From: Syntrophales bacterium
GTDB taxonomy: Bacteria; Desulfobacterota; Syntrophia; Syntrophales; JADFWA01
Length of the DNA stretch: 64,000 nt
Reading direction: 5' to 3'
Assembly (NCBI GenBank): GCA_030655775.1
Contig: JAUSPI010000213.1
Location: 263-64,262, forward strand
The notes under the pieces were generated by a model. It did no database searches. It was given only the letters and a program-made list of their open reading frames with translations, and was not told where the DNA came from. Positions 1,075 to 22,372 of the stretch are shown here, piece by piece. Each line of letters opens with the position of its first letter. Positions within the stretch are counted from its first letter, which is position 1. A program made the translations under genes and the position numbers.

Positions 1075-1082
1075 GGGAGATA

Positions 1083-1146
1083 GGGGGACACCTTACTTAA
1101 TTCTCAGTTATTTTTTCAGCTCGTTGCATAATTAAGTAAGGTGTCC
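1083..1146. repeat. REP/REPIN-like palindrome, interrupted by the group II intron
   Basis: Perfect 17-bp inverted repeat GGACACCTTACTTAATT (1086-1102) / AATTAAGTAAGGTGTCC (1130-1146). It shares the GGGGACACC core with copies at 3538, 3751 and 5792. Confidence 0.75.
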
Positions 1147-1943
1147 GTACGCAGTAACAACTGTTTTATCTTGCGGGTTAAAGTCCCGTCCGGGGAATTG
1201 TCCGATTCGCCCCGGTAGTTCAAGGGAGCGGCGTCTTGGCAACAAGGGGTCGTAAGTTTCCAATTGGCAAAGCAGCAGGCCGTAACGAAAGTGAACCTAC
1301 ACGTAGCCTCGTCAAACTAAGTTGGAGATGCCGACCCTGTGGACACAAGGGGAAGGCCGATGTGCGAAGGCAGAGATAACGGATGTGGCCTGAGCGATCT
1401 TTCGGGGTAGCAGGGGTGGCATGTTGCGGAAGATAAACAGTCCAGTGCTGGAGACCCGATATGGTGATGATTGAGGAATATCAACTGGCGCGTATAAGGC
1501 GACGAAATCGCGGCGGGCTGTATCGGGAGTCGGAGGGGTTCATAGTACCGTTTGAGGGCATGGGACAACATAACCCTGCCCGAGGGAAGGGACCCTACTT
1601 TGTTCATGCAACCGAAGAGTGGAGGGTGATGAAGATTGCCGAATGGCTATTCACTTTGTAATATCACCAGGACACGATGGAGGAAGCTCTATTGTCAGGC
1701 CAAGTAGAGAACGCTGGTACTCGGCGGGTCTCCTCAACCCACTTAATGCTGGGGTACAGCGAGTGCTATGCATGCCTTGCGATGAAGAACATCGGAAAGC
1801 CGTGTGCGGGAAAATCGCATGCACGGTTTGATGAGGGAGGATTGGCAAGGCAACTATGGTGCGGCTATTTAGGCACTGCCAGACGAAAGGGGCAGAAACA
1901 GATAAGCCAGCCTAAAGCGGTCATTGCCAGTTCTCTACTCTAC
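1147..1943 (+). mobile_element. ORF-less (RT-deleted) group II intron, IIB-like
   Basis: 5' end GTACG. EBS1 loop GGACAC at 1341-1346 pairs 6/6 with the 5' exon end GTGTCC (1141-1146). Domain V AAGCCGTGTGCGGGAAAATCGCATGCACGGTTT at 1797-1829 has an AGC triad. A long domain VI ends ...CTCTACTCTAC at 1943. RT remnants: RKLYCQAK (1681-1704) and HALR* (1771-1785). Confidence 0.88.
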
Positions 1944-1969
1944 CTGGAATTGCCAGGAATTGCTGGAAT

Positions 1970-2031
1970 TCTATGAGTAGGATGCTCATTCCGCTGCGCT
2001 TCATTCGCACCTCTCAAGCTGGGCGTTAGCT
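1970..2031 (+). other. Partial attC site (left R'' end lost) preceding katA
   Basis: ATGAGTAGGATGC...GCACCTCTCAAG imperfect stem with unpaired bases on the left arm, ending GGGC-GTTAGCT (core-like site at 2025-2031). Confidence 0.55.
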
Positions 2032-2063
2032 GAACGAAAACAATAAACAAAAGGAGAACAAAA

Positions 2064-3539
2064 ATGAAAGACGACAAGAAAAAACTCACCACGAACGCCG
2101 GGGCTCCGGTACCGGACAACCAGAACGTCATGACCGCCGGCCCTCGCGGACCACAGCTGCTGCAGGATGTCTGGTATCTGGAAAAAATGGCCCATTTCGA
2201 CCGTGAGGTTATTCCGGAACGGCGAATGCACGCCAAGGGCTCCGGGGCCTACGGCACCTTTACCGTAACCCACGACATCACCAAGTACACCCGCGCCAAG
2301 ATCTTTTCCAAGATCGGCAAGAAAACCGAGATGTTCGCGCGCTTTTCCACCGTGGCCGGAGAACGCGGTGCTGCCGACGCCGAACGCGACATCCGTGGTT
2401 TTGCGCTTAAATTCTACACCGAGGAGGGCAACTGGGATTTGGTGGGCAATAACACGCCTGTCTTCTTTCTCCGCGACCCGCTCAAATTTCCGGATCTCAA
2501 CCATGTCGTCCATCGCGACCCTCGCACCAACCTGCGCAGCGCCAAAAACAACTGGGATTTCTGGACATCCCTGCCCGAGGCATTGCATCAGGTGACCGTG
2601 GTCATGAGTGACCGCGGCATCCCGGGAAGCTTCCGCAACATGCACGGGTTCGGCAGCCACACCTTCAGCTTCATCAACGCCAAAAACGAGCGCTACTGGT
2701 GCAAGTTCCACTTCCGCACCCAACAGGGCATCAAAAACCTCACCGATGCGGAGGCTGAGGCTGTGATCGGCAAATGCCGTGAGAGCAATCAACGCGACCT
2801 CTACTACTCCATAGAGAAAGGCGATTTCCCGCGCTGGACCCTGTACGTCCAGATCATGACCGAAGAGCAGGCCGCCAAGCTCCCCTACAATCCTTTTGAC
2901 CTGACCAAGGTTTGGTACAAAAAGGATTACCCCCTTATCGAGGTGGGAGTCATGGAACTTAACAAGAACCCGGAAAACTACTTTGCCGAGGTGGAGCAGG
3001 CGGCCTTCAATCCGGCCAATGTGGTGCCGGGCATCAGCTTCTCACCCGACAAGATGCTCCAGGGCAGGCTCTTCTCCTACGGCGACACCCAGCGTTACCG
3101 GTTGGGGGTCAACCATCACCTGATCCCGGTGAACAAGGCCCGCTGCCCCTTCCACAGTTATCACCGCGACGGCCAGATGCGGGTGGACGGTAACTATGGC
3201 TCAACCCTTGGCTATGAGCCCAACAGCTATGGTGAGTGGCAGGAACAGCCCGATTTCTCCGAGCCGCCTCTGGCACTGAGCGGGGCCGCGGCCCACTGGA
3301 ACGCCCGCGAGGATGACAGCGATTACTATACCCAGCCGGGCAAGCTCTTTCACCTGATGAGTAAAGAGCAACAGGAGGCCCTGTTCGGCAACACCGCCCG
3401 GGCCATGGACGATGCGCCGGAGATGATCAAAATCCGCCACATCGGCAACTGCCTGAAGGCCGACCCGGCCTACGGCGAAGGGGTGGCCAAGGCCCTGAGT
3501 ATCCCGCTGAGCAAGGTGCCGAAGCAGGCAATTGGGTAA
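2064..3539 (+). CDS. katA: Monofunctional heme catalase (small subunit, clade 3 type)
   Basis: Active-site [17 protein letters not shown], proximal heme [18 protein letters not shown]; RBS AGGAG. Visibly GC-richer than the core genes. Confidence 0.97.
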
Positions 3540-3626
3540 TCTGGGGACACCATATTAGTTTAATCTTCGAACGCGGCAATATTTTAGAAAACTGAATAAA
3601 TAAATAGGGGCACTTCCCTATTTATT
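3538..3626. repeat. REPIN copy (left arm and core) fused to a second palindrome
   Basis: AATCTGGGGACACCATATTAGTTTAATCTTCGAACGCGG..., near-identical to 3751 and 5792. The right arm is replaced by AATAAATAGGG/CCCTATTTATT (3599-3626). Confidence 0.8.
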
Positions 3627-3659
3627 GACGATGGCCATCAATAGGCATATACATAGCGC

Positions 3660-3752
3660 ATGCCAAGAATAGCACGCGTTACATCACCCGGCTATCCTCA
3701 TCATATTACTCAGCGCGGGAACAATCGTGAAGATGTCTTTTTTAAAGGGTAA
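3660..3752 (+). pseudogene. N-terminal fragment of a REP-associated tyrosine transposase (RAYT, Y1_Tnp)
   Basis: Own translation MPRIARVTSPGYPHHITQRGNNREDVFFKG*. The HHITQRGNNR motif is typical of RAYT N-termini. The stop overlaps the start of the REPIN at 3751. Confidence 0.8.
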
Positions 3753-3825
3753 TCTGGGGACACCATATTAGTTTAATCTTCGAACGCGGTAATATTTTAG
3801 AAAACTGGTATGGCGTCCCCCGATT
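3751..3825. repeat. REPIN copy (75 bp)
   Basis: AATCTGGGGACACCA ... TGGCGTCCCCCGATT imperfect terminal inverted repeat around the shared core. Confidence 0.85.
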
Positions 3826-3854
3826 TTGACATATGAAATAATAGGAGATGAAAA

Positions 3855-4580
3855 ATGGACACAGCACTCATCACGATTGGGATAGGCATTGTTTTGGGGG
3901 TTGCAGGATCAATTATAGTAAAGAAGGCCTTCGGCAAGAAAGATTCTGGCGAGGGCACAAAACAACACCAGATCTATGCCTTTGTGGAAAATATGAAATC
4001 TGTGGGTGAGCTGGTGGTGTTTAAGGCATTTACAAAAGAGATCGTCACAACGGCTGATCACTGGCTTGGCAAAGTGGGAAAGAAGTATCTTACCTGGCTG
4101 ATGTCCAATATGAAGATGGCCATGATTTTTCAGTTCGAAATAAATTTCTGGTATGACCTGAAAAGCCATGATTTTAGAGTGATGGATGCGGGCCAGGGCA
4201 GGTTCATGATAACAATGCCAAAGTGCTTGTATGACATTAATATAAAAGATATCAGCTTTTATGATGAACAGAGTGCCAAGCTGTTGGACTGGCTATTGCC
4301 ACCTCTTATTAGCAGAGTTTTCTCAAAAGATTTTACTGAAGAGGATAAGAACAGGTTAAAAGACGAGGCAAAGACGCAGGCCTCTTCTATGGCAAATCAA
4401 CTGATCAAGCAGTTAAGCTCAGAGATTGAAAAATCTGCAAGGCAAACCATGGAGATGCTGGCAAAGAGTTTTGGTGCGGAATCCGTTGTATTGGACTTCA
4501 GCGAGTCCCAGTTAATGGAAAAAGGGGTTACCGACCTTTCCCGACAGCCGACTGAGCAATCCACCGCGCCTCTCCAATAA
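3855..4580 (+). CDS. DUF4230-like membrane-anchored protein
   Basis: N-terminal transmembrane helix, then MKSVGELVVFK...EINFWYDLK...ITMPKC, the family-like pattern; RBS AGGAG. Confidence 0.7.
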   Translation: MDTALITIGIGIVLGVAGSIIVKKAFGKKDSGEGTKQHQIYAFVENMKSVGELVVFKAFTKEIVTTADHWLGKVGKKYLTWLMSNMKMAMIFQFEINFWYDLKSHDFRVMDAGQGRFMITMPKCLYDINIKDISFYDEQSAKLLDWLLPPLISRVFSKDFTEEDKNRLKDEAKTQASSMANQLIKQLSSEIEKSARQTMEMLAKSFGAESVVLDFSESQLMEKGVTDLSRQPTEQSTAPLQ

Positions 4581-4655
4581 CAAGAGATGATAGGTTATAA
4601 CCAATTCTGAAAAAGTGGGGCGGGAGCCCCCACGCCGGTTAAGAAAGGAAATATT

Positions 4656-5732
4656 ATGAAGAAGTTGATTTTACTTATTAGTATTTTATTGTTAACGCCC
4701 TGTACTAGCATGGCAACAGATAAAAATAACATTCTCGCTTGGCCCGACAATCTCCCAGTCTATGATCATATTGTCATTGTCGTTGAAGAAAACAAAGATT
4801 ATGAGGAGGTAATAGGTCAAGAATACGCGCCTTACATAAATGATGTTCTGAAAAAGGAGGGAGCTAATTTCATAAAAATATTCGGAGAAGAACACTTTAG
4901 CCAGGGGAATTATTACTGGTTATTTTCCGGTGACAATCAAAACGTAGGTTTTACCGACCAGGTGCCTAATAAAACTATTAATTCATCGTATCCGTTTACC
5001 ACCAGTAATCTTGGTTATCAATTAATAAAAAAAGGATTTTCGTTCAAAGGTTACTCGGAAAGCTTGCCCGCTATCGGCAGCACAGTTGCAAAACATGGGG
5101 TTTACGCGCGGAAGCATGTTCCCTGGATAAGTTTTGCGAATGTTCCTAATGGCCCAACAATCGAGACATCATCTAATCTGAGATGGAAAGATTTCCCCTC
5201 GCCTTCTGAATACGACAAACTTCCAACAGTTTCATTTGTCATTCCCAACCTTGATAACGATATGCATAACTGTTATCCGCCTAACTGTAGTCCAGGGTCA
5301 CAAGAAGAAATGATGAAGTGCTGTATAAAAAAGGGGGATGACTGGCTGAAAGAGAATATTGGCCCTTACTATCAATGGTCAAAGAAGAATAATAGTTTGC
5401 TTATTCTTACCTTTGACGAAAATGATGATAAGAGAGGTTATCTGGGGTTAACAAATCCAATGATTAAATCGGAGAAAATTTTTTGTGATAGCTCAAAAAT
5501 TGATCCTGAATACTGTGAGGATCTGGAAAATAAAATAGTCACTATTTTCGCGGGTGCGCATATAAAGCCAGGTGATTACCCGGAAGGCAAAGGAATTACG
5601 CATATTAATATTTTGCGAACTTTAGAGGCTATGTATGGATTGCCTAAGTCAGGTAAACAGCAGCCTAACGCGGCAGGATACGGCATAAGTGATGATTACA
5701 TAATAACTGATGTGTTTGAGACGGTGCGATAG
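4656..5732 (+). CDS. Secreted acid phosphatase, phosphoesterase family (SapM/AcpA-like)
   Basis: Signal peptide; DHIVIVVEENK, YARKHVPW, LPTVSFVIPNLDNDMH, LLILTFDEND motifs. Confidence 0.85.
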   Translation: MKKLILLISILLLTPCTSMATDKNNILAWPDNLPVYDHIVIVVEENKDYEEVIGQEYAPYINDVLKKEGANFIKIFGEEHFSQGNYYWLFSGDNQNVGFTDQVPNKTINSSYPFTTSNLGYQLIKKGFSFKGYSESLPAIGSTVAKHGVYARKHVPWISFANVPNGPTIETSSNLRWKDFPSPSEYDKLPTVSFVIPNLDNDMHNCYPPNCSPGSQEEMMKCCIKKGDDWLKENIGPYYQWSKKNNSLLILTFDENDDKRGYLGLTNPMIKSEKIFCDSSKIDPEYCEDLENKIVTIFAGAHIKPGDYPEGKGITHINILRTLEAMYGLPKSGKQQPNAAGYGISDDYIITDVFETVR

Positions 5733-5791
5733 AATGAATACAGTTCAGTCCTTTACCCGCAATGCTGGCTTTTCCAAGGCGCCGACTCAAT

Positions 5792-5866
5792 AATCCGGGG
5801 ACACCACAATAGTTTAATCTTCGAACGCGGCAATATTTTAGACAACGGGTATGGTGTCCCCGGATT
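5792..5866. repeat. REPIN copy (75 bp)
   Basis: Perfect 15-bp inverted repeat AATCCGGGGACACCA / TGGTGTCCCCGGATT with the same internal core as 3751. Confidence 0.88.
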
Positions 5867-5979
5867 TTAAAAAGAAATCATACAAGGACATAACGCTGTG
5901 TAAGAGAACAGAAGGTTTCTCTACAAAAGAGTATGGTTTTGCTATACTTTTCTATTAAACAAAAAGAAGGCGAAAAGAA

Positions 5980-7671
5980 ATGAACCTTTTATCCAAAAGT
6001 GCCCCGCTAGAAGAGTCAATAGCAAAAATGAAAGCAGTTTTAGCAGACGTTGGATGCGAAACTACTCTTTCGGATGAAAAGCATCCGCTGGAGCATTGTT
6101 ACTCTGTGAATCTCGTTTCGGTTGAAGCACCAGGTCATATCTATTCCAACGGAAAAGGGATTGTATCGGACGCATCGATGGCGAGTGCATTGGGTGAGTA
6201 TATTGAACGGCTCCAGACCAATACCTTTTTTATCGATTTTCACCTGCCAAATCGAAAGTATTATCCTGACGAAGTCGCCTTTGAGTTTGGCGGAGCATAT
6301 CTAAACGATGAACTACGCTTAGTGTATGATCCTGATGGAGAGCTCACGGATGAAGACCTTGTTGATTACAGTAGTGATTATGAGGATAAGATCGTTGCAC
6401 TGCCTTTTACGAAACGATCGAGTGGGGATACTGTATATATTCCGGTTAATATTTTGAGCAATCTCTACGTCAGTAACGGTCTGGCAACGGGAAATACGCC
6501 ACAGGAAGCACAGGTGCAAGCGCTAAGTGAGATTTTCGAGCGTTATGCCAAAATAGAGATCATCAAAAACGGTTATGCCCTTCCTAAATACCCCGATGAA
6601 ATTGTTCAATCCTTTGATCGACTGCATAGTGATGTTTTGGCGCTGCGGGAGTCAGGATACATCGTAGAGGTTCTTGATGCGTCATTAGGGGGAAAATACC
6701 CCGTCACCGCTATCTCTTTGATCAGTCCGGAGAACTCTTCTCTTATTGTCTCCTTTGGTGCGCATCCAATTTTAGAAGTCTCGCTTGAGCGGACGATGGC
6801 AGAATTGATGCAAGGTCGCGAATTGGAAAATCTGGATGCCTTTGAAGTCCCGACCTTTGACATGAGCATTGTCTCGGACAGTTCTAATCTTGAGTCGCAT
6901 TTTCTTGACTCTAATGGAAAGTCAGGATTTGGATTTTTAAGTTCTGCAAAAAGTTTTGAATATGCATCGTGGAGCTATCAGGGCGAGGGACGCGAAGCAG
7001 AATACAACTACCTGACTGATATTCTTGACAACATGGGCAAAGAGATGTTTCTGCGAGAATACAGCTATCTTGGATTCTATTCTTGCCAGATGATCGTTCC
7101 TGGTGTTTCTGAAGTCTACCCTATTGAGGACTTGATCTACAATAATAGAAACACCGGCAAATTGATCCGAAATATGGTTTTACATTTTGAGGAGTATGAT
7201 CCTCAGGAGATTATAGACACTATTGATTCTCTGGATGATTCAATCAATATCGAAAACTATATCGGTGTTATTTTCGAGAACAGTTTCACCATGCTTGAAT
7301 TTAAAGCGCAAATGCATCTCATTCTTGGTAACACAGATGAGGCTCTGGCATCCTTGGAATTTGGGACTAATAAGCTGGGACATATTGTCGCGGAATTGAT
7401 CCGAATGGACGAAGAAAAGTTGGTTTGGGAAGAGTACGAAGAGGCTCTGTTTAACATCTTTGGACGAGAAAGAGTCGAAAAAGCCTTGCGTATAGTAAAA
7501 GGTGAAGAGTTCCTGGTAGATACAACACTTCATAGTGACTATCACAATATGCTTGAAATGTATGACAGGCTAGAGCGTAAAAAACAAGCTGCCCTTGTTA
7601 GGCAGGGGAATAAAAACCGCCGGGAGTCCATCAATCCGGAAGGTCAGGGGAAATCTCCGTTTTCCCCTTGA
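5980..7671 (+). CDS. ycaO: Stand-alone YcaO-family protein (E. coli YcaO type), probably with a chimeric C-terminal extension
   Basis: SKSAPLEESIAKM, YSNGKG..ASMASALGEYIERL, SNGLATGNT...QALSEIFERY and FGAHP..EVSLERT motifs align with the YcaO family. Confidence 0.88.
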   Translation: MNLLSKSAPLEESIAKMKAVLADVGCETTLSDEKHPLEHCYSVNLVSVEAPGHIYSNGKGIVSDASMASALGEYIERLQTNTFFIDFHLPNRKYYPDEVAFEFGGAYLNDELRLVYDPDGELTDEDLVDYSSDYEDKIVALPFTKRSSGDTVYIPVNILSNLYVSNGLATGNTPQEAQVQALSEIFERYAKIEIIKNGYALPKYPDEIVQSFDRLHSDVLALRESGYIVEVLDASLGGKYPVTAISLISPENSSLIVSFGAHPILEVSLERTMAELMQGRELENLDAFEVPTFDMSIVSDSSNLESHFLDSNGKSGFGFLSSAKSFEYASWSYQGEGREAEYNYLTDILDNMGKEMFLREYSYLGFYSCQMIVPGVSEVYPIEDLIYNNRNTGKLIRNMVLHFEEYDPQEIIDTIDSLDDSINIENYIGVIFENSFTMLEFKAQMHLILGNTDEALASLEFGTNKLGHIVAELIRMDEEKLVWEEYEEALFNIFGRERVEKALRIVKGEEFLVDTTLHSDYHNMLEMYDRLERKKQAALVRQGNKNRRESINPEGQGKSPFSP

Positions 7672-7726
7672 CAAAACTTATCATGGATGTCCCCTTATTT
7701 TCATTATGCATAAAATAAATTAAAAG

Positions 7727-10055: not shown

Positions 10056-10712
10056 ATGATTCGCAAATCTTTTTCAGTATTTCTTATCTTTGGCTTTTTC
10101 GTGCCGTTATTGATCTTTGGCCCAATGACGTTGCATGCAGATGCAACAAACCCATCAACTTCCCTGGACAAATTAGAAAAAAGAATCGCATCATTCAAAC
10201 CTGATCCGACGTATAGGGACGACACAAAGCTGCATTGGTCACTTTGCGGGAAGCCGTGGCCGCCGCTAAAGAAGGGAACTACGGAATTGGCGCATGCCTC
10301 GTCAATGAAAAAACCGGAGAAGTTATTCAGCGAGGGCACAACCGCATATTCAGCCCGTATTTCCGAAGCGATCTACACGCGGAAATGGATACACTTACCG
10401 GCTATGAACAGAGAGTCAGTCAACGCACAAACTCCAAAAGTAGAGGGACTGGTTTTATACACTTCGCTTGAGCCCTGCCCTATGTGTCTGGCCCGAATTA
10501 TTACCGCTGGAGTGCGAAAGGTATATTATTTGGCTCCAGATCCTTACGGTGGCATGGTTCATCTTTTCAAGAATCTTCCTCCGATCTGGCAGAAAATCGC
10601 TGAGGGAAGAATATATGAGCCAGCCCTATGTTCCCCGGAGCTCAAAGACATCGCAAATAAGGTTTTCAAGTACTCATCTGAAATGTTGGATGAAAGGTTG
10701 AAAAAAGAATAA
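10056..10712 (+). pseudogene. Signal-peptide-bearing nucleoside/cytidine deaminase (TadA/GuaD-like fold) with two compensating frameshifts
   Basis: PCPMC (10473-10487) is in the 10056 frame, but the HAE zinc motif (10376-10384) and GNYGIGACLV lie in the 10235-10471 frame. Confidence 0.75.
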
Positions 10713-21389: not shown

Positions 21390-21465
21390 GCTGGCGTAGC
21401 TCAACAGGTAGAGCAGCTGATTTGTAATCAGCAGGTCGCGGGTTCGAGTCCCATCGCCAGCTCCA
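21390..21465 (+). tRNA. tRNA-Thr(TGT)
   Basis: Cloverleaf; anticodon loop TTTGTAA; GGTTCGAGTCC T arm; CCA end. Confidence 0.97.
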
Positions 21466-21466
21466 G

Positions 21467-21551
21467 GGAGGGGTTCCCGAGCGGCCAAAGGGAGCAGACT
21501 GTAAATCTGCCGGCGGAGCCTACGGAGGTTCGAATCCTCCCCCCTCCACCA
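21467..21551 (+). tRNA. tRNA-Tyr(GTA)
   Basis: GGAGGGG/CCCCTCC acceptor, CTGTAAA loop, long variable arm, CCA. Confidence 0.97.
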
Positions 21552-21555
21552 TAAA

Positions 21556-21631
21556 GCGGGAGTAGCTCAGTGGCTAGAGCATCAGCCTTCCAAGCTGAGG
21601 GTCGCGGGTTCGAATCCCGTTTCCCGCTCCA
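21556..21631 (+). tRNA. tRNA-Gly(TCC)
   Basis: GCGGGAG acceptor, CTTCCAA loop, CCA. Confidence 0.97.
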
Positions 21632-21675
21632 TTTTATTTATAAAAATGATTGTCTGGTTTGTAGGGTAACAATTT

Positions 21676-21809
21676 GAGAGCTTTGCAAAACTGCAATTCT
21701 GGTCATTGCGAGGAGCTTTAGCGACGCGGCAATCTTATGAATTATCAATATGTTATGAGATTGCTTCGCTTCGCTCGCAATGACAATATTGGTATTATGC
21801 AAAGCTCTC
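21676..21809. mobile_element. MITE with GTCATTGCGAG-type palindromic cargo
   Basis: TIR GAGAGCTTTGCA / TGCAAAGCTCTC; duplication AATTT on both sides; internal GTCATTGCGAG (21702-21712) / CTCGCAATGAC (21774-21784). Confidence 0.85.
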
Positions 21810-21918
21810 AATTTGTGAGGGATGAGCAGGTATTCTGAAGGTTGGAGAATTTGTCTGATAGCCGATGCTGATCTGTACTTAGAGCTATTGTAAATTGCTT
21901 TTTAAATTTATTAATTTT

Positions 21919-21994
21919 GCCCACGTAGCTCAGTCGGTAGAGCACATCCTTGGTAAGGATGAGGTCACCAGTTCAATCCTGGTCGTGGGCTCCA
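21919..21994 (+). tRNA. tRNA-Thr(GGT)
   Basis: GCCCACG acceptor, CTTGGTAA loop region, CCA. Confidence 0.97.
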
Positions 21995-22016
21995 TTTTAG
22001 AGAGAGTTGGCTTGTA

Positions 22017-22166
22017 ATGAGAAATATAATTACGTTGGCTTGTACGGAATGCAAGCAAAGAAATTATACAACAACGAAGAACAAGAGAACGATGCAGGAT
22101 CGTCTTGAGTTAAAAAAATATTGTAAATTTTGCCGGGTCCACACTGTTCACAGGGAAACGAAGTAG
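22017..22166 (+). CDS. rpmG: 50S ribosomal protein L33 (zinc type)
   Basis: Own translation [49 protein letters not shown]; below the ORF-track length cutoff. Confidence 0.97.
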
Positions 22167-22294
22167 TTAACATGGGTTGCATCTTAGCAGAGAAACCGTT
22201 GTGTAAATCTTTTTTCGCTTTACCTGAAATGTTTTTTAATGATTCTAAGGCTTGGACAACATCCTGTTTTAAGGTAAACCCCATATACGGGTAC

Positions 22295-22372
22295 GGGCCA
22301 GTAGCTCTAATTGGATAGAGCGCCGGACTCCAAATCCGGATGCTGGGGGTTCGAGTCCCTCCTGGCCTGCCA
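22295..22372 (+). tRNA. tRNA-Trp(CCA)
   Basis: CCGGA-CTCCAAA-TCCGG anticodon arm, CCA end; typical position before secE. Confidence 0.95.

Follow-up and report, generated by a model that had tools for sequence, protein, structure and literature searches.

A non-autonomous group II intron from a Syntrophales bacterium appears to have homed, by means of EBS1-IBS1 pairing, into the head of a repeat of the type that flanks RAYT genes, and the lineage to which it belongs seems to use such repeats as targets. The probability of this reading is estimated at about 80%, splicing and mobility being inferred. The preliminary description of this DNA had proposed a non-IIC intron aimed through its EBS1 at a RAYT-associated REP, and this proposal is now supported by covariation, by occupied and empty sites and by the link with RAYT genes, the copies having been counted only in the window (the whole 64-kb stretch of DNA that was analysed).

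Structure and class of the intron

The intron occupies positions 1147-1943 of the + strand (797 nt) and its ends are 5' GUACG ... CUAC 3'. The domain I core matches the Rfam family RF02005 (group-II-D1D4-6) at 1180-1417 with 65.6 bits, all of the model positions 1-225 being matched, and D5-D6 match RF00029 at 1795-1943 with 49.5 bits; the gathering scores of these families are 49 and 40, respectively. The features recognised downstream of domain I are the following:

1461-1795, + strand: domain IV, with remnants of an RT/maturase gene (leader, first codons and last codons kept, RT-X body deleted)
1797-1830, + strand: domain V, 33-34 nt, with the AGC triad at 1798-1800 and a GAAA loop
1833-1943, + strand: domain VI, with an insertion of ~75 nt in its distal part and the basal helix kept
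1944-1970, + strand: beginning of the 3' exon, with C1944 as its conserved first base (IBS3) and a 10-nt tandem repeat (x2.9) after it

The 5' boundary was established by homology with L022, L009, L101 and L163: similarity to relatives begins exactly at 1147 (GT[A/T]CGCAGTAACA) and the flanks are unrelated. The 3' boundary was taken from eight aligned D5-D6 ends. TRF puts the 10-nt repeat at 1943-1970, so the first base of the repeat is the last base of the intron; in 24 of 25 other full-length relatives the first base of the 3' exon is also C. The 5' end GUACG differs from the group II consensus (GUGYG ... AY) and, because the whole subfamily has GU[A/U]CG, it is, as far as aligned sequences can tell, a lineage variant; the 3' end is AC. 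The ~75-nt insertion of domain VI is common to L111, L052, L026 and L241 and is missing from L022, L009 and L101. In the basal helix of this domain CUCUACUCUAC is kept among relatives, and the bulged A has been assigned by reading the sequence only.

The content of domain IV was interpreted by comparison with the full-length copies L159 and L163. The protein of L022 has its sole tblastn match in the window at 1583-1624, and the 3' ends of plasmid ltrA genes match window positions ~1769-1848 (blastn); the plasmid matches were confined to D5/D6 and to the ends of the gene for the protein encoded by the intron. No gene for an intron-encoded protein was found in the 64-kb window, which contains one copy of the intron. 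The element at 1147-1943 is an ORF-less, non-autonomous intron from which the protein gene has been deleted, and ORF-less relatives of 625-893 nt are common in the family.

Many full-length relatives measure 1904-1991 nt, and the closest of them encode RT-X proteins of about 440-463 aa without endonuclease (463 aa in the case of the L022 ORF). The best Rfam domain I family is D1D4-6, lower-scoring members of the clan having been dropped. The D5-D6 match to A. caldus NC_015851.1 (205219-205365) overlaps at its end a listed fragment assigned to group g3, formerly class F (Toro and Martinez-Abarca 2013, Table S2, PMC3552965). The intron, with its IIB-type RNA, looks class F/g3-like, in the absence of phylogenetic placement. 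The earlier argument against class C was correct: the AGC triad, a domain V of 33-34 nt, the non-IIC domain I family, a 6-bp IBS1 located inside the stem, the lack of a terminator and the existence of hairpin-less relatives rule out a IIC reading.

Exon recognition and splice junction

1341-1346, + strand: EBS1 GGACAC, in the 9-nt terminal loop of the GCCGACCCU...AGGGGAAGGC hairpin (1330-1357)

GGACAC had been noticed as a 6/6 partner of the exon end GTGTCC (1141-1146); the pairing is confirmed and the position of the loop agrees with the Rfam consensus structure. Each of the exon positions -1 to -5 pairs with the EBS1 loop in 33-35 of the 35 distinct exon/loop combinations, and compensatory double changes were observed in 2-16 sequences for each EBS1-IBS1 pair. 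None of 500 shuffles reaches the observed covariation score, and slid registers collapse. The predicted splice junction is 1146|1147 because homology starts at 1147 and because EBS1 and IBS1 covary across relatives. A junction at 1141, with GTGTC as the 5' end, would have refuted the preliminary description; such a junction is rejected by the homology start at 1147 and by the covariation of EBS1 with positions -1 to -6. EBS2 was sought by computing mutual information between every domain I column and exon positions -7 to -15, and no consistent helix emerged. No EBS2 partner was found, although conservation among the sites extends over exon positions -7 to -12.

The host palindrome and its surroundings

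856-1074, + strand: truncated upstream ORF of 72 aa, the 5' context of the insertion
1067-1086, no strand: 9-nt tandem duplication (GGAGATAGG x2.2), touching the left arm of the palindrome
1086-1102, + strand: left palindrome arm (GGACACCTTACTTAATT), a copy, now diverged, of the inverted repeat that flanks RAYT genes
1103-1129, + strand: loop of the host palindrome, 27 nt
1130-1146, + strand: right palindrome arm, in which the 5' exon ends, with IBS1 GTGTCC at 1141-1146

The intron, originally described as sitting in the right arm of a 17-bp palindrome, adjoins the end of this arm: the arms at 1086-1102 and 1130-1146 (17 nt each, 27 nt apart) are 100% complementary and the intron starts at 1147. 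As single-stranded DNA the hairpin has a folding energy of -14.4 kcal/mol (z = -7.2), a value equalled by none of 200 shuffles. It had also been stated that excision of 1147-1943 restores GGTGTCC|C and extends the palindrome. The first part is correct; the extension is real but minimal, consisting of only one Watson-Crick pair (C1944-G1085). By eye, 15 of 19 bases of the left arm agree with GGGGACACCATACTAGTTT of L247/L248. Rather than being a copy of the 78-nt REPIN found further downstream, the host hairpin is related to it by descent from one inverted repeat. No terminator-like site with a T-run is present in 700-2100.

Homologues of the truncated ORF have 80-121 aa, the full protein being of about 120 aa, and its product belongs to no Pfam or NCBIfam family. 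DNA homology to L250 spans 775-1060 and ends there, and the segment 1061-2023 is bounded by two breakpoints of homology to other genomes. Duplications comparable to the 9-nt one are seen beside REP heads in L163, L101 and L131.

REP/REPIN-like repeats and the RAYT remnant of the window

3537-3594, + strand: the left-arm half, alone, of the 78-nt repeat; it flanks the RAYT remnant on the 5' side
3660-3749, + strand: RAYT remnant, a 30-codon N-terminal piece of a Y1/RAYT gene (MPRIARVTSPGYPHHITQRGNNREDVFFKG) cut off by the next repeat
3750-3827, + strand: REPIN-like element of 78 nt, two RAYT-flanking inverted repeats joined by 45 nt
5791-5868, + strand: REPIN-like element of 78 nt with 15-bp perfect arms

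The core of the homing site was reported to recur in repeats near 3538, 3751 and 5792, and copies of GGTGTCCC are indeed located at 3544, 3757, 5798 and 5853. This motif occurs five times in the window against 1.33 expected, always in the host hairpin or in these repeats, and GGGGACACC also occurs five times, against 0.22 expected. The four other GGTGTCC|C sites of the window are unoccupied. All REP-like copies lie within the first 6 kb of the 64-kb window, the rest of the source genome not being covered. The element at 3750-3827 carries an empty and slightly mutated homing site (GGCGTCC|CC) and folds as single-stranded DNA at -13.9 kcal/mol (z = -3.8); that at 5791-5868 has empty homing sites on both strands (GGTGTCC|CC at 5853-5861) and folds at -16.7 kcal/mol (z = -4.4). 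The partial copy at 3537-3594 does not fold alone (z = +0.4). The 78-nt elements have TAATCYGGGGACACCA...TGGTGTCCCCGGATT in common, and the RAYT remnant lies between them.

In tblastn comparisons the remnant is 64% identical to the N-terminus of the L241 RAYT and 50% identical to that of L236, and it also matches full RAYTs in L190, L246 and L111; the full RAYTs of related loci match PF01797 and NF047646. The remnant itself (30 aa) obtained no identification in Pfam, NCBIfam, PDB or a large protein search, the fragment being too short. Derivation of the host hairpin and of the 78-nt elements at 3537, 3750 and 5791 from RAYT-flanking inverted repeats is supported, on comparative grounds. Copies of the repeat are also present in L131, L163, L218, L247, L248 and L252-L257; neither the REP nor the EBS1 hairpin was matched in the viral contigs scanned.

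Occupied and empty sites in other genomes

The source of the repeat can be seen in L247, whose RAYT-like gene has AAATCAGGGGACACCATACTAGTTTTT on one side and AAAAACTAGTATGGTGTCCCCGGATTT on the other as 27-nt inverted repeats; both halves of this gene have their best NCBIfam match in NF047646. In L248, from a Smithella sp. MAG, a 24-nt inverted repeat surrounds an internally deleted RAYT and there is a solo copy besides; at 960-985 this locus has a GTAC-type scar of 4 nt, which may have been left by the loss of an intron. Since only frameshifted or truncated copies of the GGGGACACC-linked RAYT family were found, this family may be more like a decaying IS than a domesticated single-copy RAYT.

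Introns with EBS1 GGACAC occupy sites in L163, L218, L241 and L251; L163 and L241, like L248, come from Smithella-like MAGs. In L241 an intron 90-95% identical to that of the window is inserted at CTAGTATGGTGTCC|CGGGATTA, 56 nt from the RAYT ATG; L251 has the same geometry (56 nt from the RAYT start) with one IBS1 mismatch. The identity of these two introns, both in RAYT-flanking repeats, to the window intron is 84-95%. In L163 and L218 the intron is found in the same type of hairpin as in the window, and the upstream flanks differ. Over window positions 1076-1625, which comprise the hairpin and ~480 nt from the intron start, L163 is 87.6% identical, and a compensatory change is seen in the stem. 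In L101 and L163 the palindrome runs 3-7 bp past the insertion point. Empty sites were identified in L247, L248, L252-L257 and L131. The expectation that every copy would lie at GGTGTCC|C in a REP arm is fulfilled in the four occupied loci but not in L213, where a copy with EBS1 GGACAC is inserted at a site that is not recognisably REP.

The pattern in the intron lineage

A domain V pattern scan of a genome collection yielded 120 loci from many phyla, cut as fixed 8-kb blocks, among which only L022, L009, L101 and L111 were informative. RAYT-like genes are present in 12 of 120 loci of the intron family; where other introns were taken, the count was 2 of 120 (Fisher p = 0.01). In at least 8 of the 12 the RAYT lies within about 70 nt of an intron end. 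Against a cutoff of 80 bits, the RAYT of L111, which belongs with another REP family of the intron lineage, reaches 85.2. One arm of the RAYT-flanking inverted repeat forms the 5' exon end at five loci whose RAYT is complete (17/19 matches in L190, 10/12 in L173, 15/17 in L219, 22/24 in L246 and 16/18 in L111), and a motif of the GGGGTCAGGTC / GACCTGACCCC type is found, on either strand, at more than half of 111 junctions. Many of the family junctions are on short contigs, with no visible REP or RAYT context. REP targeting as a property of the whole intron lineage is supported by these comparisons, which are of sequences alone.

A local hairpin is not a general feature of the family: this idea is ruled out by 87 of 97 family junctions, which have no arm of at least 6 bp. 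Because about 90% of the wider family's junctions thus lack a hairpin, the target is read as sequence and not as a IIC-style stem-loop. Arms of at least 11 bp ending exactly at the junction are found at 6 of 97 family junctions and at 0 of 1164 control positions.

Proposed mechanism and alternative explanations

According to the mechanism proposed, the intron RNA would be carried by a protein that a full-length copy provides in trans, and would reverse-splice into DNA at ...GGTGTCC|C (retrohoming). The site would be recognised by EBS1 GGACAC together with IBS1 GTGTCC and the first base of the 3' exon, C. This sequence is the conserved 'head' of the inverted repeats that flank Y1 (RAYT) genes and recurs in their REP/REPIN-like derivatives, and sublineages carry different EBS1 matched to different REP families, on either strand. 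Insertion is inferred to occur into the transiently single-stranded lagging-strand template, primed by the nascent strand, as in other endonuclease-less introns. Related to this, the GC skew is positive almost throughout the window, so the sense strand of the intron is probably the lagging-strand template. The presumed benefit would be a supply of many neutral intergenic sites on both strands. It is unlikely that the intron exploits the action of Y1 on REP DNA (exposure of ssDNA on the lagging-strand template, a RAYT nick as primer for the RT, or co-mobilised intron-bearing REPINs); if true, retro- and DNA-transposition systems would be cooperating on one repeat. Hitch-hiking on ssDNA REP transposition, as once suggested, is pure speculation.

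Other explanations have been considered. The exact start of the intron at the 3' end of a perfect 17-bp arm, the excess of long arms ending at family junctions (6/97 against 0/1164) and the report of IIB and class E introns beside attC-like hairpins (PMC7923331) could mean that the RNP recognises the DNA stem-loop as such, in the manner of IIC introns, the REP being used merely as a hairpin. This is very unlikely, given that a local hairpin is missing at about 90% of family junctions and that the repeat occupied in L241 and L251 is separated from its partner arm by hundreds of bases. Besides, IBS1 lies inside the stem rather than after it, comprises 6 bp and covaries, the palindromes of L101 and L163 continue 3-7 bp beyond the insertion point, there is neither T-run nor terminator, and domain V differs from that of IIC introns.

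The hairpin and the intron could also have travelled as a unit, for instance as a RAYT-moved ssDNA REPIN with its intron, which would be hitch-hiking and not homing. The window and L163 are equally similar (87.6%) over hairpin and intron and unrelated outside, L163 and L218 have the hairpin and the intron start in common with different upstream flanks, and 1061-2023 sits between two breakpoints of homology. Yet empty copies of the same repeats are common, one intron type is found in two repeat architectures (hairpin and RAYT-flanking inverted repeat), the family-wide EBS1-IBS1 covariation shows that the RNA chooses sites, and no intact RAYT of the GGGGACACC-linked family was found, which leaves movement as a unit quite unlikely. 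Finally, the presence of a single intron in the window and the divergence, beyond the GGGGACACC core, of the host hairpin from the 78-nt elements would be compatible with ordinary retrotransposition into a palindrome that happens to share a 9-mer with nearby repeats, without any relation between intron and REP. Such a coincidence is highly improbable in view of the independent occupied sites in L163, L218, L241 and L251, the enrichment of RAYT genes beside family members, the 5' exons equal to RAYT-flanking inverted repeats in five loci and the frequency of GGGGACACC (five against 0.22 expected). Homing by EBS1-IBS1 pairing into the repeat head remains the preferred reading.

Comparison with known systems

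The class F introns (g2-g4; D.a.I1, Ni.ha.I1, Pe.th.I2) resemble that of the window in the IIB-like RNA, the AGC triad of domain V, full-length relatives of ~1.9-2.0 kb and an RT-X protein of about 430-460 aa without endonuclease domain; the window copy differs from them in having no ORF. The EBS1-IBS1 interaction as the decisive exon contact is common to both, having been described as such in IIE/IIF ribozymes (PMC3753933). Class F loci have been tabulated as 'putative non-coding sequence' or 'transposase', REP and RAYT being unmentioned (Toro and Martinez-Abarca 2013, PMC3552965).

Class C introns are alike in adjoining an intergenic DNA palindrome and in their endonuclease-less protein. They read a stem-loop (terminator or attC) plus an IBS1 of 3-4 nt downstream of the stem, unlike the window intron with its 6-bp covarying IBS1 inside the stem, its mostly hairpin-less family and its non-IIC domains I and V. 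RmInt1 (class D) and other IS-homing introns (ISRm2011-2 and others) also lack the endonuclease, use a multicopy mobile element as a safe site, recognise it by EBS-IBS pairing and probably insert at the replication fork. However, they target the body of DDE-type IS, whereas the window lineage targets the terminal inverted repeat of Y1/RAYT elements and its REP/REPIN derivatives, and its sublineages have diversified onto different REP families, on both strands.

REPs are also preferred landing sites of IS1397, ISKpn1 and the IS110-family elements ISPpu9/ISPpu10; in IS110 elements an RNA guide reads the REP sequence, as in the window intron lineage. In P. putida KT2440, 2 of 9 copies of a group II intron are located in REPs (Tobes and Pareja 2006, PMC1525189). 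That record is an association of 22% in one genome without mechanism, whereas here there are EBS1-REP complementarity, empty and occupied sites and a RAYT link throughout the lineage. In the integrons of halophiles, Sonbol and Siam (2021, PMC7923331) described non-IIC introns (IIB, class E) right after attC-like hairpins. They are alike in the non-IIC class, the adjoining hairpin and the nearby IS200/605-type elements, which also use ssDNA, but they occur singly or are truncated, lie in cassette arrays and lack a demonstrated match between EBS1 and a family of repeats. Literature searches on RAYT or REPIN combined with group II introns yielded no account of such targeting.

Biological significance

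The targets of bacterial group II introns were divided by a 2015 review into three kinds, namely terminator stem-loops, attC sites and specific homing sites (PMC4424553). The inverted repeats of Y1/RAYT elements, with their REP/REPIN offspring, would constitute a fourth target pattern and a concrete reason for the low-cost intergenic spread of some endonuclease-less introns. In this way group II introns join IS110 elements among the RNA-guided exploiters of REPs. The set of natural EBS1/target pairs is available for retargeting studies, and annotators should be cautious, as intron remnants are possibly hidden at REP sites. On the whole, the finding points to the ssDNA of the replication fork as a place where retroelements and REP/RAYT systems may come together.

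The window intron and its family

The recognisable parts of the group II intron of the window are as follows:

1147-1943 (+): the intron
1180-1417 (+): domain I, matching RF02005 (group-II-D1D4-6) in Rfam at 65.6 bits, above the gathering score
1583-1624: 14-residue leader remnant of an intron-encoded protein, the only part matched by tblastn
1795-1943 (+): D5-D6, matching RF00029 in Rfam at 49.5 bits, above the gathering score
1797-1830: full-length domain V, with an AGC triad at 1798-1800

Since domain IV lacks a long ORF and a tblastn query with the protein from the nearest full-length relative recovered the leader alone, the window intron is a 797-nt ORF-less derivative. It is present in one copy in the 64-kb window, which nowhere contains a gene for an intron-encoded protein. 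Relatives were collected by scanning reference genomes with a domain V pattern and metagenomes with a domain I pattern, which together provided about 120 introns of the same subfamily (fetched loci carry L-numbers). Full-length introns of the family measure 1.9-2.0 kb and code for RT-X proteins (about 440-463 aa) that lack an endonuclease domain, and ORF-less versions of 625-893 nt are frequent. Homology among the relatives starts exactly at GT[A/T]CGCAGTAACA, the sequence upstream being unrelated, and all of them end in ...CUCUACUCUAC, the next base being C in all but one of the 25 other full-length relatives. The intron is called here class F/g3-like, a label with no phylogeny behind it, because of the size of its relatives, their endonuclease-less RT-X proteins and a match of its D5-D6 on the A. 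caldus megaplasmid (NC_015851.1, 205219-205365), whose end overlaps a g3 (former class F) fragment in Table S2 of Toro and Martinez-Abarca 2013.

The distal part of domain VI carries an insert of about 75 nt (window about 1843-1925, GGCACUGCCAGACGAAAGGGGCAGAAACAGAUAAG...), which is conserved in L241, L111, L052 and L159 and absent in L022, L009, L101 and L163; L026 has an insert of like length and different sequence. An unrelated sequence of about 1.26 kb, possibly a nested mobile element, interrupts the RT-X gene of L163 (reverse strand) between residues 219 and 219 (intron positions 1088-2351).

EBS1-IBS1 pairing

The loop of the EBS1 hairpin, GCCGACCCU...AGGGGAAGGC, varies in step with the last exon bases, as in these EBS1/IBS1 pairs:

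Window: GGACAC/GTGTCC
L022: GGTCAG/CTGACC
L101: GGACAGA/TCTGTCC

Exon positions -1 to -5 are paired in 33-35 of the 35 distinct exon/loop combinations, with 2-16 compensatory double changes per pair. The covariation score was reached by none of 500 shuffles, slid registers all collapse, and a mutual-information scan agrees. Because the pairing covaries and the slid registers fail, the 5' splice site is assigned on comparative grounds between 1146 and 1147 and EBS1 to 1341-1346, as the preliminary description had placed them. The mutual-information scan found no EBS2 partner, which fits the finding that IIE/IIF ribozymes can splice without EBS2 (PMC3753933). Despite this absence, exon positions -7 to -12 are conserved among independent sites, which remains unexplained.

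Host palindrome and REP-like elements of the window

The intron starts directly after the right arm of a palindrome with perfect 17-bp arms (1086-1102 and 1130-1146) and a 27-nt loop, which folds as ssDNA at -14.4 kcal/mol (z = -7.2). Nothing terminator-like or promoter-like was found at this site. Removal of the intron, expected to extend the palindrome, does lengthen it, by one base pair only. Other repeats of the window are the following:

3537-3594: left half of the 78-nt repeat
3750-3827: 78-nt repeat, arms TAATCYGGGGACACCA...TGGTGTCCCCGGATT
5791-5868: 78-nt repeat, same arms

The motif GGGGACACC occurs five times against 0.22 expected, in all five cases within elements of the 78-nt type or the host hairpin. 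Between 3594 and 3750 lies a 30-codon ORF (MPRIARVTSPGYPHHITQRGNNREDVFFKG), for which tblastn against the fetched loci gave matches at the N-terminus of Y1 transposase genes. Complete genes of this kind match PF01797 and the NCBIfam model 'REP-associated tyrosine transposase' (RAYT), that of L111 with 85.2 bits against a cutoff of 80. In L247 a frameshifted RAYT-like gene is flanked by 27-nt inverted repeats, AAATCAGGGGACACCATACTAGTTTTT and AAAAACTAGTATGGTGTCCCCGGATTT, and L248 has an internally deleted RAYT copy between 24-nt repeats 258 nt apart. The 78-nt elements hold both of these repeat ends at a spacing of 45 nt and are REPIN/MITE-like miniatures of the RAYT-flanking structure; the host hairpin arms, GGGGGACACCTTACTTAATT, are a diverged copy of the head of this repeat. 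A search with the closest N-terminus, from L241, recovered nothing but short and decayed copies, among them one of a Smithella sp. MAG; the L247 and L248 structures come from the contigs of these copies. Every RAYT found of the family linked to GGGGACACC is decayed.

In the segment 3537-3830 the RAYT gene of the window ends after codon 30, exactly at the start of a full 78-nt element that is co-oriented with the upstream solo half-repeat. The arrangement suggests that a REPIN inserted into the gene, or that sequence between two repeats was deleted. The interval from the half-repeat to the RAYT ORF contains a small hairpin, AATAAATAGGGGCACTTCCCTATTTATT. Short tandem duplications adjoin repeat heads and homing sites on both sides: GGAGATAGG x2.2 at 1067-1086 and CCTGGAATTG x2.9 at 1943-1970 in the window, CTTATTGTT x5 in L101 and others in L163, L131 and L248; whole targets are duplicated in tandem in L211, L022 and L168. 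Their cause is unknown, slippage and traces of Y1 transposase being candidates.

Other occupied and empty sites

Five further loci carry introns with EBS1 GGACAC and a readable 5' flank. In L163 (full length) and L218 the intron sits in a hairpin homologous to that of the window, GGGGACACCATACATAATT...AATTAAGTATGGTGTCC, and starts after AATTAAGTATGGTGTCC; L163 is 87.6% identical to the window from 1076 on, with one stem pair changed in compensatory fashion. L241 contains a 506-nt derivative with 90-95% identity to the intron of the window, inserted between ...AAAACTAGTATGGTGTCC and CGGGATTATCG. Read from the other strand, this site is the left inverted repeat flanking a RAYT pseudogene, 56 nt from the ATG. 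The same geometry is repeated in L251, with a decayed intron and one IBS1 mismatch. The expectation that other copies would lie in REP arms is thus met by two hairpin sites and two RAYT repeats, and fails in L213, where the site, ending in GGTATTATGTCC, is not recognisably REP.

Empty copies of the repeat are found in L247, L248, L252-L257, L131 and the window itself. The RAYT right inverted repeat of L248 (960-985) reads GGTGTCC-GTAC-CCTGATTT, with four extra bases exactly at the homing site that equal the intron termini (GTAC...CTAC). They may be the scar of an intron lost by deletion between TAC at intron positions 2-4 and the terminal TAC.

Association of the lineage with RAYT genes

RAYT-like genes are present in 12 of 120 family metagenome loci (531 kb) vs 2 of 120 loci of other introns (788 kb; Fisher p 0.01). 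One of these two, L111, has a D5-D6 83% identical to that of the window, and its removal brings p to 0.003. Intron ends lie near RAYT genes, with no fixed side or orientation; the distance to the RAYT start is 34-66 nt in L190, L173, L219, L241, L203, L147 and L161, and in L246 an intron end lies 3 nt past the RAYT stop. In all five loci with a complete RAYT, the 5' exon end is one arm of the RAYT-flanking inverted repeat (17/19, 10/12, 15/17, 22/24 and 16/18 matches). The repeat of L111, GGGTCAGGTCTTGA / TCAAGACCTGACCC, is the commonest target of the family (insertion between ...CAAGACCTGACC and CC), and motifs of this type occur on one strand or the other at more than half of 111 family junctions. 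Across the L127-L246 junctions, two sublineages use opposite strands and opposite edges of the same 9-bp core, one inserting after GGGGTCAGGTC, the other between GACCTGACC and CC. Covariation, RAYT-repeat 5' exons and the occupied and empty sites together uphold the original proposal of a non-IIC intron directed by EBS1 to a RAYT-associated REP.

A hairpin arm ends exactly at 6 of 97 family junctions vs 0 of 1164 control positions, which is an enrichment, yet 87 of the 97 have no local hairpin. Because hairpins are a minority, the repeat is taken to be read as sequence, with a hairpin only where two arms happen to be close. Class IIC introns are well known at terminator and attC hairpins. A class C reading, already set aside in the preliminary description, is excluded by these hairpin-free junctions, the AGC triad and full-length domain V, the 6-bp IBS1 inside the stem and not after it, and the lack of a terminator.

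The RAYT-like proteins of about 320 aa in L246 (2679-3647), L161 and L173 are extended at the C-terminus by a stretch that weakly resembles the C-terminal DNA-binding domain of DnaA (TIGR00362, E = 2e-4).

Genomic context

A protein of about 120 aa is represented at 856-1074 by a truncated ORF. Upstream homology to L250 stops at 1060, and the catalase region matches Desulfobacterota contigs (L123-L126, 93-98%) from 2024-2029 onward, so that hairpin, intron and about 80 nt of 3' flank lie between two breakpoints. The catalase-phosphoesterase-YcaO segment (2024-7700) is 91-96% identical to L126, a Deltaproteobacteria MAG contig, and its G+C is above the rest of the window (0.54 at 2001-4000). 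Every synteny break with L126 (3546/4635, 5745/5871) falls at a REP-like element, and the REP copies apart from the host hairpin all sit at such breaks; at the matching place L126 has a degenerate repeat and a RAYT remnant. The window alone has the DUF4230 gene (3855-4580). No REP-like copies were found in the densely coding tRNA/operon part (21390-53700).

This part comprises five clustered tRNA genes (21390-22369) and, from ORF sizes and order alone, apparent rpoB/rpoC and ribosomal-protein operons (22600-53700) with strongly positive GC skew, all ordinary. Unrelated to the intron, a 218-aa ORF (10056-10712) shows a zinc-binding motif of the MafB19-like/cytidine deaminase type (PF14437, E = 7e-8) and may represent a toxin-like deaminase domain.

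Proposed mechanism and comparison with known systems

Sequence comparison shows that the target is chosen by EBS1-IBS1 plus the conserved C at +1, and that targets are RAYT-flanking repeats and their miniatures. An RNP with protein from a full-length copy elsewhere would reverse-splice into transient ssDNA at the fork, and the nascent strand would prime cDNA synthesis. Both steps are inferred by analogy with endonuclease-less introns such as RmInt1 (reviewed in PMC4424553); splicing and mobility are untested. The GC skew of the window is positive almost throughout, and therefore the intron sense strand is probably the lagging-strand template, the strand that Y1 transposases use as well (PMC6006769). 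Palindromes and inverted repeats present the target on both strands, so that one arm always has a suitable orientation. Hitch-hiking of the intron on REP transposition is speculation.

Homing of group II introns into other mobile elements is well known, and insertion sequences of the IS1397 and IS110 types are known to target REPs. In one survey, two of nine copies of a P. putida intron lay in REPs (PMC1525189), attC-like hairpins with adjoining IIB and class E introns have been seen (PMC7923331), and a 2015 review gives three target specificities only (PMC4424553). Literature searches found no description of an intron lineage with EBS1 matched to RAYT-flanking repeats. What is apparently new is that a whole lineage is matched in this way, homing into mobile elements itself being already known.
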